Assembly: GCA_965198235.1 (NCBI GenBank)
Contig: OZ240248.1
Coordinates: 2,880,001-2,944,000 of the forward strand
Source: Candidatus Poribacteria bacterium
GTDB lineage: Bacteria; Poribacteria; WGA-4E; WGA-3G
Reading direction: 5' to 3'
Length of the DNA: 64,000 bases
Positions 17,829 to 62,565 of the stretch are shown piece after piece. The stretch's first letter is position 1, and the number at the start of each line of letters is the position of its first letter. The notes beneath the pieces were generated by a model. It made no database searches and was not told the DNA's origin. It saw nothing but the letters and a program-made list of their open reading frames with translations. Position numbers and translations under genes: made by a program.

Positions 17829-17926
17829 ATTTCAGCAACAGGTGTACTTTGGGCATACACCGCTTCTCAACTGGCGAGGGTTCCTGGGGGAAACACCCAA
17901 GCAAAAACACCTCGGCACTAATACGG

Positions 17927-18883
17927 TTACTGCTTGCTTTTGAGATTTCCCCAGAGTGTCACCAACTTTTCTTGTGGCAAAACCGCTAAGGGTATCGGCT
18001 GCCAAGCGGGACCCCTATTCCTTCCAGCCTGATTTTGAGTGAGATTGACAGGATTGGAACCGTCGTCATCCATTACATAGATGTCATCCTTACCTTCTCG
18101 GTCAGAAGTAAAAGCGATTTTTGTTCCATCTGGAGACCAGGCAGCCCGATCATCAAATGCGAATAGGTTGTGAGTCAGTTGAATGGTATTGGAGCCATCA
18201 GCATCCATCACATAGATTTCAAAATCACCATCTCGACCTGAAGTGAAGGCAATTCGCTTGCCATCTGGAGACCAGTCAGCACTCCTGTCCCATGGCTCCA
18301 GGTTTTTCGTCAGTTGAATCGGTCTGCCACCGCTAACTCCTATCACATAGATTTCACGATCACCGTCGCGGTCTGAGGTGAACGCTATTTTTGTCCCATC
18401 CGGAGACCAATCTGGGTGACGGTCTGCTTTTGGATGCCGTGAGATATTCGTGGGATTGGTACCATCCGCGCGCATGATATAGATCTCTTCGTTCCCTCGG
18501 TTTGAGCCGTAGACGATTTGCGTCCCATCCGGAGACCAGTCAGCACCAAAGTCGCCTGACGAATTTCGTGTGAGATTTATGCGATTTGTCCCATCAGCAT
18601 TTATCGCATAGATATCGTAAACGCCTTTTGGGTTCGAGGTAAAAGCGATGCGCTTACCGTCTGGAGACCAAGTAGGCCCGCTGTCTGCCGCCGGATTTTT
18701 AGTAAGTCTGACCGAGGCTCTTCCATTGGCATTCATCACATAGATTTCAGAATTACCATCTCGGTCTGAGGTAAAGGCGATTTTCATAGCAGCCGCCGGT
18801 ATCTGCTCTGCCAATACGATGAAAAGACCTACCAATACTGCTAAAAAACACTTCTGTAAACAGATAGGAAATGTCAACTTCAT
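17927..18883 (-). CDS. Secreted TolB-like (PD40 repeat) beta-propeller protein
   Basis: Repeated WSPDG.KIAFTS.RDG..EIYVM; C-terminal [15 protein letters not shown]. Confidence 0.9.
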
Positions 18884-18992
18884 AATTTACCTCGTTAGCG
18901 ATCTGAATGAAAACTTTTGAGAACCTTGTATGTTTTAACGTGCGTTGGGTATAAGGGTTTACACAGACGCTTGAGAAACGAGTATAGAAAAA

Positions 18993-20906
18993 TTATCCGG
19001 GTAAGGCACCTTGGTAATTCACACCAGTAAACATCCCGATCACCATCCAAATCCCGACAATGCCAAACTCACCAATAATCAATCCCATAAACAGCGGTCG
19101 GAGTCTTCGATAGGATCCGATGCCACCGGATTTCAGTGCCAAATATTTCAAAAACCAGCCAATACATATACAAGACCAGAGGAAATAGGAGGAATAAACC
19201 GCACCCATCACATATCCAATCGGGTGAAGTTGCCACCACATAAATTGGCGCTGCATAATCAGTAGAAAGCTAGTGATGCCGGTTCCCAAAAGCATGCTGT
19301 ACGCCTCCCCCAATTTCGCGTCTTTCGGGTATTGAATCAGTGAAACCATATGATTGAAGTATCTCGGTGATCCGACGAAGGGACCCCTTTGCAAATTTAA
19401 TCCGCCTTTTTCATAAATCAAGGGCAACGATGCCGCATAGGAAACACCGATAGCAACAACAATAGCAAGCACCATCGCGCCGAGGATGCTTCTTCGATTT
19501 AATCCGACTGGATCCGCCGCTTTGAATCCATGCAGAACGCTCGGCATCAAGATGCCGCCCCAGTCACGCATCATTACCCGCTGAAATCCTAAGAGTGCCA
19601 AACTGTTCGCATTAATGATTCTTGAACCCGTAATAATCTCAAAGTATTCTACGGGATACATCGGTGCCTGAATCAGTAGCATTCCACCGTTGACGACCAT
19701 CCACGATAGCGCAGTAGAAGCAATCAGGAACAGGACAATAATGCTACAAGCGACCCAAAGCGACATCCCCGCGTAGACGCAGAGACCCGCAAGCAACAGA
19801 AAACTAAAAATTGTCCCCAGCACTGCCCATCTATACGGTAATACTTCACCCGAATCATCAATCGCTGTGGAGGCAGCGGACTCCAAAAACGTTCGTCTCA
19901 GGAGATCTTTGATATGGGTTCGACTGTTAAGCAGGAAGGCGAGGACCATAACCACATAGGCAGCCATTGTTTGTCCTCTGGCAGATATCCACGGACTGAT
20001 AGGGATGGCGAAGGCATTGATGATAATGTATTGTAACTTGAAGAATAGGAAGAAAAACCAGCAACTGAAAGACACCTCCATGGCGAGAAAGTAGGTTATA
20101 CCGATAACAGAGAAATACAGAAAGAACCGAAATTGCGGCCACCAACCCATCACAATCCACGGGCGCTCCGTGAATGGGGTGTACAGGTCATACCGATTCG
20201 GAATGCGCGGGAGTGCGGGGAAATACTCGTGCAGTCCATTGAGTAGGTGAAAGAAGGCGGCGATTCCAAACCCTACCCACACGAGCCTATTCTTGAACAA
20301 ACTGTTCAGACCCGCGTGCATTGAGGTTTGCTGAACCATCTCCACAGGCACAGTAACGAGTGGAAAGATGAACCTTTCGCGTTCAACCCACTGTTTTCTT
20401 AATACAACCGATACGCAAATCGTCAGCGCGTAGAACAGTAGGATAAAAACTGTCCAAACGAGGAGCGGTTTTGCCCAGAGTGCCCAAGGAACAATTGATT
20501 CTCCCTCGTAGAAATCGGTGACGGCGTACTCATCCCACACAATTAGCCATTCGGGGAAATGAGGATGAAGCGTTTCTGCCCACTCATTCTCAGGTGTAGC
20601 AAAATAGACCGGTGCCGCCAAGTAGGGAAGTAAATACCCGATCATCCCCTTCGATGGAATCGCTGAACTGATTACCATCATAACCCAGACTGTCATCAAT
20701 TCCCCCGGATTTAGCACCGCTCGGGGAAATACTTTCTTCAGAATGGGATTGACGACCAAGGTGAGAAAAATCAGTGTAAACACTGTCCCCAAAGGAAAAT
20801 GATTTCCGGCGATATCTGTTCCTTGGAGGTAGTAGTCGTTATAGGGGGTAATTGCTGTCTGTATAATGACGAGTGCCAAACCGATCAGAATCGCTCTCAC
20901 GCTCAT
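18993..20906 (-). CDS. Polytopic membrane protein, DUF6785/DUF6784-like (putative peptide transporter)
   Basis: Many TM helices; LRKQWVERERFIFPL and WWQLHPIGY motifs; paralogue at 57844. Confidence 0.7.
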   Translation of the reverse strand: MSVRAILIGLALVIIQTAITPYNDYYLQGTDIAGNHFPLGTVFTLIFLTLVVNPILKKVFPRAVLNPGELMTVWVMMVISSAIPSKGMIGYLLPYLAAPVYFATPENEWAETLHPHFPEWLIVWDEYAVTDFYEGESIVPWALWAKPLLVWTVFILLFYALTICVSVVLRKQWVERERFIFPLVTVPVEMVQQTSMHAGLNSLFKNRLVWVGFGIAAFFHLLNGLHEYFPALPRIPNRYDLYTPFTERPWIVMGWWPQFRFFLYFSVIGITYFLAMEVSFSCWFFFLFFKLQYIIINAFAIPISPWISARGQTMAAYVVMVLAFLLNSRTHIKDLLRRTFLESAASTAIDDSGEVLPYRWAVLGTIFSFLLLAGLCVYAGMSLWVACSIIVLFLIASTALSWMVVNGGMLLIQAPMYPVEYFEIITGSRIINANSLALLGFQRVMMRDWGGILMPSVLHGFKAADPVGLNRRSILGAMVLAIVVAIGVSYAASLPLIYEKGGLNLQRGPFVGSPRYFNHMVSLIQYPKDAKLGEAYSMLLGTGITSFLLIMQRQFMWWQLHPIGYVMGAVYSSYFLWSCICIGWFLKYLALKSGGIGSYRRLRPLFMGLIIGEFGIVGIWMVIGMFTGVNYQGALPG

Positions 20907-60795: not shown

Positions 60796-60988
60796 AAAGT
60801 GAGCAGGAAACTACCGTAAGGCGAGGTGTCTTTGGGGAAATACCCAAGCAAAAACACCTCGCCGATCGATTTCAAATGCGGGAAGGGGTACAGGGCTATC
60901 GGAAGTTTCCTCCTACGAGGGGAGGTGAGTCAGCAACCAGCAAGTGTTGAGAGCGAGGTTCGTTTCTAATGGTGAAGGTTCTATGCTC

Positions 60989-62338
60989 CTAAGATAACTC
61001 TTTCAAACTGCCGGTGCTATCGCCTAATTGTGCAAGGTTGACATCCATGCGATTGAGCATTGATAGCCAGAGATTGTTAAGCGGGGTCTCTTTCGGATAG
61101 CGAATATGACGACCACTTTTGATCGTGCCACAGCCATTTCCAGCGAGCAGAATTGGGAGATTGTGGTGGCTGTGTCGGTTGCCATCTGCATTCCCGCTAC
61201 CGTACAGAATCATTGAATGATCCAAGAGCGAACCCTCCCCTTCAGGGGTAGCGTTGAGTTTTTCCAGGAAGTATGCCAACTGTTGAGAATGGAAAATATC
61301 AATTCGTTTGATTTTTTCTATTTTCTCTTCATCACCACTGTGATGTGACAAGTAGTGGTGTCCGTCTGAAACATCGACAAACGGATAGGGTCTGTTGCTT
61401 CCTTCATTTGCGAGGACGCAGGTTGTAACGCGGGTTACATCCGCCTGAAATGCGAGTACCATCAGGTCCATCATCAGACGCAGATGCTCCTGATAATCTG
61501 CTGGAATTTCCTCCGGCACGGTATAATCAGGGCTTTCGATGGGGGGGTACTTTTCAGCCGATGCGATTCTCAACTCGATATCCCGAATGGCGGAGAAGTA
61601 CTCATCGAGTTTCCGGACATCGTTCCCGCTGACTTGACGGATTAACTCTTTTGAGTCCTGTCTGACAAAATCGAGGATACTTTTTCGCTGTTGATCGCGT
61701 TCTTCTCGTTGTGTGTCAGGCAGAGAGGAGAATAGCCGTTCAAAAGCAAGTTTCGGATTTACCTCTTTGGGAAGCGGTTGCGTAGAAGAACGCCATGACA
61801 GTGTTGATGAATAGACGCAGCTATAGCCAGAATCGCAATTTCCTGCCCTTCTTCCAGGATCGATTCCGAGTTCAAGCGAAGGCATTCGGGTCCGGTTACC
61901 GATATGCGATGCCGCGACTTGGTCAACAGAAACGCCAGCCTGAATGTCAGCACCATCAGTTTTACGGGGCTGTGCGCCTGTAAGGAACGCCGCCATGGCA
62001 CGGGCGTGATCGCCACCGCCGTCCCCGTTAGCACGGGCTTTATCAGCCGTTAGACCGCTTAGCACCAACATCTTGTCTTTCACATTTTCCAGTGGTTTCA
62101 GGATATCCGTGAGTTCATAGTTAGCTCCGATCTGCTTTGGGGTCCAATCCTCCATAATCTTTCCGTTGGGCACGTAAAGGAATGCCATCCGATTCGGAGC
62201 TGTCTGGTGTGCTACCCCACTCGCGGGAGCGTTTGCCCACGATGTAACGGGTCCCATCACTTCCAGCCACGGTAGAGCGATACTAACTCCCAAACCGCGT
62301 AAAAACGTTCGACGTGAAAGTTGCTTTGAAGTATTCAT
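60989..62338 (-). CDS. DUF1552 domain protein
   Basis: SRRTFLRG, YVPNG, SVDQ, CDSGYSCVY, HHYLSHH, H.H.NLP. Confidence 0.9.
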   Translation of the reverse strand: MNTSKQLSRRTFLRGLGVSIALPWLEVMGPVTSWANAPASGVAHQTAPNRMAFLYVPNGKIMEDWTPKQIGANYELTDILKPLENVKDKMLVLSGLTADKARANGDGGGDHARAMAAFLTGAQPRKTDGADIQAGVSVDQVAASHIGNRTRMPSLELGIDPGRRAGNCDSGYSCVYSSTLSWRSSTQPLPKEVNPKLAFERLFSSLPDTQREERDQQRKSILDFVRQDSKELIRQVSGNDVRKLDEYFSAIRDIELRIASAEKYPPIESPDYTVPEEIPADYQEHLRLMMDLMVLAFQADVTRVTTCVLANEGSNRPYPFVDVSDGHHYLSHHSGDEEKIEKIKRIDIFHSQQLAYFLEKLNATPEGEGSLLDHSMILYGSGNADGNRHSHHNLPILLAGNGCGTIKSGRHIRYPKETPLNNLWLSMLNRMDVNLAQLGDSTGSLKELS

Positions 62339-62565
62339 AATTATTCCTTCGTCAGCTTCCCACAGTTAAAGCAGTGCGAAACTTGCGGAGCCGCTGCCGT
62401 CACTATATGATTTCTCGTTTCATAACGCCTATATCACAATTATACCTTATTTTACATGGATTGTCAAGTGTTTGTGCAGAGCCATTCGGCTCTCTTGTAG
62501 GAGGGGGGGAAACGCCCTATCAAAAACACTCCGATTCCCGACTCCTCTAAGTGTTTATGGCGTGT

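Follow-up and report, generated by a model that had tools for sequence, protein, structure and literature searches.

Module copies in the window

The DNA analysed here, called the window throughout, is a stretch of 64,000 nucleotides (nt) from a Candidatus Poribacteria bacterium (G000:C1:2880001-2944000, where G000 is a genome of 5.17 Mb in two contigs, with 48% G+C and 96% completeness). The subject is a short repeat, hereafter the module, of which the window holds seven copies, numbered in order as sites 1 to 7 (17888, 23613, 26758, 31288, 41406, 60835 and 62507). A preliminary description of the window had reported these seven copies in both orientations, and all of them are present, on the plus and the minus strand. 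Six match GGTGTTTTTGNNNGGGTGTTTCCC with at most two mismatches, a pattern found in none of 100 shuffles, and the seventh (26758-26780, plus strand) is the variant GGGGGTTTTTGCTTGGGTGTTTC; a scan of the window for the sub-units described below found no copy beyond the seven. The two module-free host copies that had been named for comparison are likewise real and belong to the same host families, called A and B below. The features are as follows.

Site 1, 17888-17911, minus strand: single module in a small hairpin loop between convergent genes; net difference of about +23 nt
Site 2, 23613-23636, plus strand: single module with the ATA linker variant, in the hairpin AAGAGGT..ACCTCTT
Site 3, 26671-26914, plus strand: 243-bp intergenic mosaic of unrelated short repeats (a repetitive extragenic palindromic (REP) sequence of the type linked to REP-associated tyrosine transposases (RAYT), the module, others)
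Site 4, 31288-31311, plus strand: single module within a repeat of about 100 nt at the 5' end of a 1163-aa open reading frame (ORF; 27859-31350, minus strand); net difference of exactly +21 nt
Site 5, 41406-41429, plus strand: module in a PhyH-like gene (40425-41741, minus strand); in frame, +30 nt, equal to 10 residues
Site 6, 60821-60863, minus strand: module (60835-60858, one mismatch) in the loop of the host A hairpin GGCGAGGT..ACCTCGCC
Site 7, 62497-62542, minus strand: module (62507-62530, ATA variant, two mismatches) in the loop of the host B REP-like repeat GGGAATCGGAGT..CCCTCCTAC
16610-16634, plus strand: module-free host B copy, GTAGGAGGGAATTCCGATTCCCGAC
44554-44576, plus strand: module-free host A hairpin, GGCGAAGTTTCCTAACCTCGCC

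Orthologous alignment revealed that site 1 is filled in G000 and G018 and empty in G006 and G024, which read GGTTCCCT^ACCTCG; the copy in G018 has decayed through a 3-nt deletion. Site 4 is also filled in G000 and G018, and the same host repeat is empty in G020, G006, G024, G012 and G045 (..GGT^TGAAG / ..AGT^TTGGA). The site 5 gene encodes a PhyH domain at residues 189-369, and its insert holds, besides the module, one half of host repeat B (CCGTGGGAGG) and adjoins a pre-existing TTTCCC; the protein of G000 reads ..VSGKHPSKNTPPTGCYL, compared with ..SGK---------SCYL in five relatives, all of them empty. At site 6, part of the module head recurs inverted in the right arm, so that the stem reaches 15 bp (fold -16.5 kcal/mol, z -7.1); G014 (GGCGAGGTTGGGAAACCTCGCC) and G018 have the orthologous hairpin without a module. 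The mosaic at site 3 comprises the variant module and one extra GGATTTC sub-unit, among others, and is absent as a block from G018, G006, G024 and G004, where the flanks join directly (empty site CCTCCT^CTAACTTTC); only parts of this segment recur elsewhere in the genome, and it resembles a cluster of the bacterial interspersed mosaic element (BIME) kind. The intergenic region of site 2 aligns poorly with relatives, G024 and G004 having AAGAGGTT..hairpin with no module, and the region of site 7 gave no alignment with relatives.

The module had been said to be translated as GKHPSKNT in two genes. This peptide is indeed the reverse-strand translation at 31288 and 41406, and at 41406 it lies inside a conserved protein; at 31288 it falls in an N-terminal leader that is perhaps untranslated.

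Two of these surroundings have features of their own. The hairpin of site 2 is flanked by heptamer-like tandem repeats (GGTTATC/GGTTAAC.., CGACGAC/CGATAAC..; window 23570-23612 and 23655-23705), and such heptamer-flanked module hairpins recur at C1:1140024, 1325905 and 241488, reminiscent of the heptamer repeats of Nostoc. The repeat of about 100 nt at site 4 (window 31230-31420; also G000:C1:1455219-1455560) lies just upstream of start codons and ends in the Shine-Dalgarno-like AAGGAAAATTAAA. Its core, CCTTGCGGTTCGG, has 141 exact 12-mer copies and 221 at no more than two mismatches, and the repeat is sometimes tandem, with four copies at an 85-nt period before one gene. It provides the ATG and the leader (M..LTEPQGKIK) of the 1163-aa ORF in several species, and the N-terminus of this ORF differs in G014 and G016 (MRTKAQSKEN.. 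in G016). The genes of the window include DUF1552 and further families characteristic of the group of phyla to which the organism belongs, and an Rfam scan of the window returned nothing at gathering scores.

Structure of the module and its arrays

A genome-wide k-mer count, suggested in the preliminary description, bore out the abundance of the module: TTTTTGCTTGGG is the commonest 12-mer of G000 (260 copies), and the core GTTTTTG(CTT/ATA/..)GGG occurs 385 times. The module can be written as GTTTTTG(CTT/ATA)GGGTGTTTC(CC). It is non-palindromic and non-coding, and it contains the GGTGTTT direct repeat with a 14-nt period that had been pointed out before. The unit which is gained or lost is 21 nt, GTTTTTGCTTGGGTGTTTCCC, instead of the 24 bp first proposed, because the leading GGT belongs to the target. 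Information content is about 2 bits from position -2 to +18 and drops to zero outside positions -3 to +21, with no flank conserved. Of the 128 single units, 124 have G at position -2; at position -1, T (80) and G (45) prevail, and at position -3, G (92) and A (35). The left flank is thus nearly always RG(T/G), and the junction on the right is variable, by 1-3 nt or more. The linker is CTT in 256 cases and ATA in 112, with hardly any intermediates, and the CTT form is stop-free in all six frames. Folded as a single strand, the unit forms only a 3-bp GGG/CCC stem (-1.7 to -2.2 kcal/mol).

Tokenising the G/T-rich strand of G000 yielded 302 loci, which comprise 128 single units, 69 matches to sub-unit X only (some of them by chance) and about 100 arrays. 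Four sub-units of 10-14 nt build the arrays:

X, 13-14 nt: GG(T)GTTTTTG followed by CTTG/ATAG
Y: GGTRTTTC followed by TGC
Z, 10 nt: GGATTTC followed by TGC
W: GTATTG followed by CTTG/ATAG

A single unit is X plus Y, that is, GG(T)GTTTTTG-CTTG/ATAG followed by GGTGTTTC. The 91 arrays of at least 40 nt are nearly all unique; four sequences recur (12 loci), mostly within one host family. These arrays change in place and are hypervariable: at one site in a histidine kinase gene, G000 and G018 carry GTTTTTGCTTGGGTGTTTCYC (21 nt), and G004 carries a 45-nt array.

Filled and empty orthologous sites

Filled and empty states were compared at 15 sites in orthologous DNA of congeneric species, which is about 80-90% identical. 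The module is gained or lost as a unit at these sites, just 3' of RG(T/G), and no target duplication was found at any of the 15. The net difference was exactly +21 nt at seven of them and ranged from +13 to +30 at the remaining eight:

Window site 4: +21 nt
Histidine kinase sensor domain (L137): +21 nt; three species empty at GAGAGT^CGTGTC
C1:510.8k, 1669.5k and 1579.9k: +21 nt each; empty in G000, filled in relatives
C1:300.6k and 221.2k: +21 nt each; against G016 and G017
Window site 1: +23 nt
Window site 6: +22 nt
L079: +22 nt
BamA-like gene: +18 nt
L067: +18 nt (loop parsed manually)
L025, in the GH2 gene: +15 nt
L066: +13 nt
Window site 5: +30 nt

Coding sequence or long open frames hold six of the 15 sites, and the net differences at all six are divisible by three. 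The consistent junctions that the preliminary description had expected from such alignments were found in so far as seven sites differ by exactly 21 nt with no duplication; the junctions themselves are fuzzy by 1-3 nt. Its picture of a very small unit targeting REP loops also stands in part: the module is independently present or absent at all 15 orthologous sites, but it also lies in frame within conserved genes.

The lengths that depart from 21 nt are related to the sequence of the target. About 15-16 nt are inserted where the loop already holds TTCCC (site 6), and 18 nt in the BamA-like gene, where the terminal CCC of the module overlaps a CCC of the target. The insertion at site 5 imported 10 nt of the donor's host B arm, joined at the pre-existing TTTCCC. 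Five empty targets read GGTTG, equal to a collapsed module head GGTGTTTTTG, and inverted partial copies lie beside full ones at site 6 and at C1:4184455.

In one set of 27 alignments, 10 showed module-only differences (seven distinct G000 sites) and three showed the whole host together with the module to be absent (L063, L068, L093); eight were filled in both genomes, several of them probably as paralogous host copies, four were unalignable and two ambiguous.

Host repeats and genes that carry the module

The module lies most often in REP-like hairpin loops and other intergenic repeats and occasionally in frame in genes, with at least 10 unrelated contexts in G000. The statement that it usually nests in differing host repeats is therefore accurate: several unrelated hosts were found, often hairpin loops beside GTTTCC/GGAAAC, and the copies do not belong to one larger repeat family. 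The hosts counted in G000 are:

Host A, hairpin GGCGAGGTT..AACCTCGCC: about 130 empty, 26 filled
Host B, GGGAATCGGAGT^TC^CCTCCTAC: 22 empty, 11 filled
REPs of the type GTAGGAGCG..: 41 empty with short loops, 12-16 filled
Host GTAGGT^TGG^GTTGAAC: 70 empty, 4 filled

All 22 empty copies of host B have the 5-nt loop AGTTC or AATTC, and the 11 others hold the module or an array. Host B also carries the module in the opposite orientation, where it appears as the flank 'TGTGGGAGG', and further repeat families serve as hosts too.

Coding DNA is depleted of the module, since long open frames hold 38 of 230 loci (16.5%) as against 78.8% of the chromosome. The genic copies occur in both orientations and in all frames. 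Copies with Pfam domains on both sides are found in cyclase-AAA-TPR, BamA/Omp85-like, histidine kinase, HEAT/TPR and AAA_15 proteins, and the copy in a GH2 glycosidase is late, past the last Pfam domain. Conserved bacterial proteins thus tolerate and keep insertions of 7-15 residues from such a unit. In the cyclase-AAA-TPR gene (L133, G000:C1:3034879-3038571), the linker at nt 1480-1600 contains the module and a REP of the host B type, all in frame; this linker is unrelated in G024 and G006.

Distribution in Poribacteria

The module is specific to one sponge-dwelling genus of Candidatus Poribacteria and occurs almost nowhere else. An exact scan of 185,579 species genomes with the 24-mer gave at least 112 stretches, and all of the 80 loci listed are from Candidatus or uncultured Poribacteria or from records named 'uncultured bacterium'. 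A degenerate 19-mer was then searched for in 176 genomes of the phylum, with the reversed pattern as control, which had no match in any of the 176. The module was present in 62 of the 64 other species of the genus (3-199 copies each, and 228 in G000), in nine of 47 genomes that belong to the family's other genera (with 1-5 copies, of which several among those listed lie close to contig ends) and in one of 64 genomes from the other ten families. Its consensus is identical across the 62 species. While the consensus is constant across species, the site 1 ortholog in G018 decays, which indicates that the family is renewed and not conserved copy by copy.

The two congeners which have no module are G161, a closed genome, and G167. 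G161 does not contain a single copy of the 12-mer and still keeps host B (36 copies) and the host A hairpin (65 copies); therefore the hosts do not need the module. In the low-copy genome G016, seven of nine copies lie in one REP host family (GTAGGAGCGAGT..CATGCTCGCGA), and in G017, 17 copies are spread over at least eight contexts. From the pattern in these two genomes we conjecture that the module might have originated in one REP loop and then escaped from it.

Candidate enzymes and other causes

An associated reverse transcriptase or HUH gene had been suggested as something to look for, and the search gave no such gene. The reverse transcriptase domain RVT_1 (PF00078) had no hit in G000 (96% complete), and an RNA intermediate is hence unlikely, although this falls short of proof. 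G000 has six Y1_Tnp HUH genes, three IS200/605-like and three RAYT-like, none of which adjoins a module. Y1 count and module count were not clearly related (rho = 0.19, p = 0.13, n = 65; since kin are not independent, p is only a guide): G161 has five Y1 genes and zero modules, and G024 has 158 modules and one weak Y1 hit. As drivers, the Y1 HUH enzymes are thus neither adjacent to the module nor correlated with it. The RAYT-like genes (161-171 aa; L163, L164 and L162 at G000:C1:605418-608762, 1897275-1900619 and 3852257-3855601) are each flanked on both sides by REP hairpins of their own (GCACTCCGCTGGAGTGC.. or GCACCCCGTAGGGGTGC.. then TATGTCTATAGA), which is the classical REP-RAYT layout.

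Loss of mismatch repair was excluded as a cause, MutS_I being intact in 61 of 65 genomes whether these are rich in the module or free of it. No link to the CRISPR of the genome was found, as none of the 55 spacers of its array resembles the module; this array (G000:C1:2733886-2738029) consists of 56 repeats, each 37 nt long, separated by spacers of 35-40 nt, and lies about 142 kb before the window. Carriage by phages was also rejected: the 19-mer was found in one viral contig only, in a REP-like loop beside heptamer repeats. No replication strand bias was seen (127 plus versus 103 minus), nor any pattern along the chromosome, and this test is soft because the GC skew is too weak to place the origin.

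Possible mode of spread

The reading we favour, with about an even chance of being right, is that the module is a nano-element like the small dispersed repeats (SDRs) of cyanobacteria, spread by DNA-templated copying guided by microhomology and expanded by slippage. New copies would be templated from existing copies at the DNA level, through template switching or ectopic conversion of a short patch. The copying would be seeded by microhomology of the target (GGT, TTG, TTTCC, CCC) with the head and tail of the module, and the favoured recipients would be single-stranded hairpin loops that already read GGT-TTCC. Replication slippage on the internal GGTGTTT repeat could then generate the arrays, selection would purge most genic copies and all out-of-frame ones, and no function encoded by the element would be required.

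We infer templated copying because the length of the insert varies with the sequence already present in the target, because site 5 brought donor flank and joined it at the pre-existing TTTCCC, because five empty targets equal the collapsed module head, because inverted partial copies adjoin full ones, as strand switching predicts, and because no reverse transcriptase was found. Templated conversion had been raised in the preliminary description as a means of spreading a protein-binding site; as a process, it seems to fit the fuzzy junctions and the donor flank at site 5 better than a cut-and-paste unit does.

Several points weigh against templated copying. Microhomology of 2-6 nt leaves the spread of this sequence alone unexplained, the seven exact +21 events resemble a unit with defined ends, and the two discrete linker forms (CTT 256, ATA 112) possibly indicate two fixed templates. 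In addition, each event could be either a gain or a loss, and a dedicated enzyme may take part, the candidates tested being Y1 HUH, RVT_1 and MutS. Public Logan contigs on window 17000-32000 break or cross-join at the module, and no insertion polymorphism is visible in them.

In the assembly of sponge symbionts, the module explains the breaks of short-read contigs at the 24-mer. One contig from run X5 (about 94% alike) spans 17781-18864 with 23 unplaced gap letters and is evidence neither way. Contigs from an RNA library cover the region of the window, which is no proof of transcription.

The possible alternative, to which we give well under an even chance, is a true mini-transposon, in which a trans-acting host enzyme (HUH/RAYT-like, integrase-like or other) would excise or copy a defined single strand of 21 nt and, in the way IS200/IS605 elements insert 3' of their target, paste it on the 3' side of RGT where DNA is single-stranded, for example in hairpin loops. 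The length of exactly 21 nt at seven of 15 sites with no target duplication, the constant left flank with G at -2 in 124 of 128 monomers, the preference for hairpin loops and the finding of both orientations in the same host B loop all agree with such a unit; copy numbers from 0 to 228 among close species look like activity switching on and off, and six Y1 HUH genes are at hand in G000. However, the module has no terminal hairpins but only the 3-bp GGG/CCC stem, the three RAYT-like genes have differing REPs of their own and none of them adjoins a module, Y1 counts do not follow module counts, strand bias is lacking, and the 3' junction is variable, with donor flank carried along at site 5.

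A more specific form, which we consider unlikely, is that dedicated insertion machinery is encoded in the genus and is missing or silent in G161 and G167, and that it writes a frame-neutral cassette of 21 nt into single-stranded loops and genes. If true, DNA would be mobile here by a new mechanism, at the lower limit of size, and the symbiont might use the machinery to diversify proteins that are exposed, for example the BamA-like protein and the sensor domain of the kinase.

It is improbable that the module is a functional motif that spread by selection rather than by selfish copying, for example as an uptake-type signal or as arrayed sites bound by a DNA- or RNA-binding protein specific to the genus. 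The shared consensus of 62 species, the two discrete linker forms, the arrays, which look like clustered binding sites, and the mostly intergenic position would agree with selection. Yet copies arise as insertions of 21 nt rather than through point mutations, the sites are mostly species-specific (seven distinct G000 sites are empty where relatives are filled), the orthologous copy at site 1 decays like neutral DNA, the copies occupy both orientations and all reading frames of unrelated genes, and two healthy congeneric species have none.

That the module has no mobility of its own and travels along as the conserved core or loop of larger repeats (REPs, MITE-like mosaics; MITE, miniature inverted-repeat transposable element) is very improbable: seven of nine copies of the low-copy G016 in one host family, identical long arrays that recur inside one host family only and the presence or absence of whole host plus module at L063, L068, L093 and site 3 would suit it, but relatives carry the orthologous host repeat without the module at sites 4 and 6, module-only differences occur within unique coding sequence, the flanks have zero information content, and G161 has hosts A and B without the module.

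Whichever reading holds, the repeat system is real and striking and belongs to a kind known before, though unexplained, and the question of its mechanism is testable. The comparative material, which makes gene association feasible, consists of 65 species of one genus, many with closed genomes, with copy numbers of 0-228, and G161, which has hosts and no module, is a natural negative control for the machinery.

Comparison with known repeat systems

Judged by their defining features, REPs, MITEs and IS200-type elements do not include the module. It resembles the REP, BIME and REPIN-RAYT systems in that it lies mostly in REP-like, GTAG-tagged hairpins and mosaic intergenic clusters of a genome with three REP-flanked RAYT-like genes. 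Unlike those repeats, it is non-palindromic, forms no stable hairpin and is also found inside genes; it flanks no RAYT gene, and its numbers do not follow those of Y1 genes. Like IS200/IS605 elements, it inserts 3' of a specific short sequence and leaves no target duplication, but it is without sub-terminal hairpins and no orientation bias was seen, the latter by a soft test with the origin unplaced. DNA uptake sequences, whose copies come about through point mutation and biased recombination at orthologous positions, differ in another respect, since module copies are distinguished from empty sites by insertions of 13-30 nt.

Rickettsia palindromic elements are selfish palindromic repeats of about 100-150 bp that lie in frame in protein-coding genes as a tolerated extra peptide. 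The in-frame genic insertions of the module are similar, whereas the module is 21 nt long and non-palindromic. Minisatellites, or variable number tandem repeats, have in common with the arrays, and with the arrays only, head-to-tail units of 10-14 nt whose number varies between orthologous loci; they do not seed hundreds of unrelated loci, and they leave the 128 single dispersed units unaccounted for. In its modular construction, with an internal sub-unit in varying number, the module recalls the BOX elements of Streptococcus pneumoniae, which, like the other MITE-like repeats in the tabulated part of the source, are all at least 67 bp (PMC3184786). MITEs exceed about 50 bp, and the module, at 21 nt, has no terminal inverted repeats and no target duplication at the 15 sites.

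Literature on repeats in Poribacteria and on the module sequence itself, at the level of titles and abstract openings, contained no description of the module. The preliminary description had known of no named element with this behaviour; there is, however, a precedent in the SDRs of the Nostocaceae. Elhai et al. reportedly described SDR1-8 of Nostoc punctiforme and relatives in 2008. SDRs are nested in other repeats and lie beside heptamer tandem repeats. The module likewise nests in other repeats and forms tandem arrays of variable copy number, encodes no protein, and is present or absent in otherwise homologous DNA (15 orthologous sites and filled and empty paralogous hosts). The part of the literature available to us gives SDRs a size of about 20-27 nt (PMC2884548, and partly general knowledge) and describes them as tandemly repeated with variable copy number (PMC2884548); the module, with 21 nt and 302 loci, falls in this size class of dispersed, high-copy repeats.

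SDR5 is described, in the passages available, as inserting precisely between nucleotides 3 and 4 of HIP1 (PMC4390886); the module has the left flank RG(T/G) in nearly all of the 128 monomers and a right junction varying by 1-3 nt or more. There are also differences. The target of the module, RGT^, is not a palindrome, and HIP1 is not enriched in G000 (137 copies). The module is exactly 21 nt, its CTT form is open in six frames, and it lies in frame within conserved genes. Poribacteria form another phylum, and the sequence is presumably unrelated. In HIP1-rich cyanobacteria outside the Nostocaceae, the accessible portion of one survey reports no SDR-like repeat (PMC5861425).

In size, dispersion, presence or absence, nesting and arrays, the module shares the descriptive features of the SDR class, as far as these sources set them out. 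It is among the smallest spreading DNA units known and the first SDR-like case seen outside cyanobacteria. How units of about 20 nt multiply has been a standing question since the cyanobacterial SDRs of 2008, and the module provides a second, independent case from an unrelated phylum.

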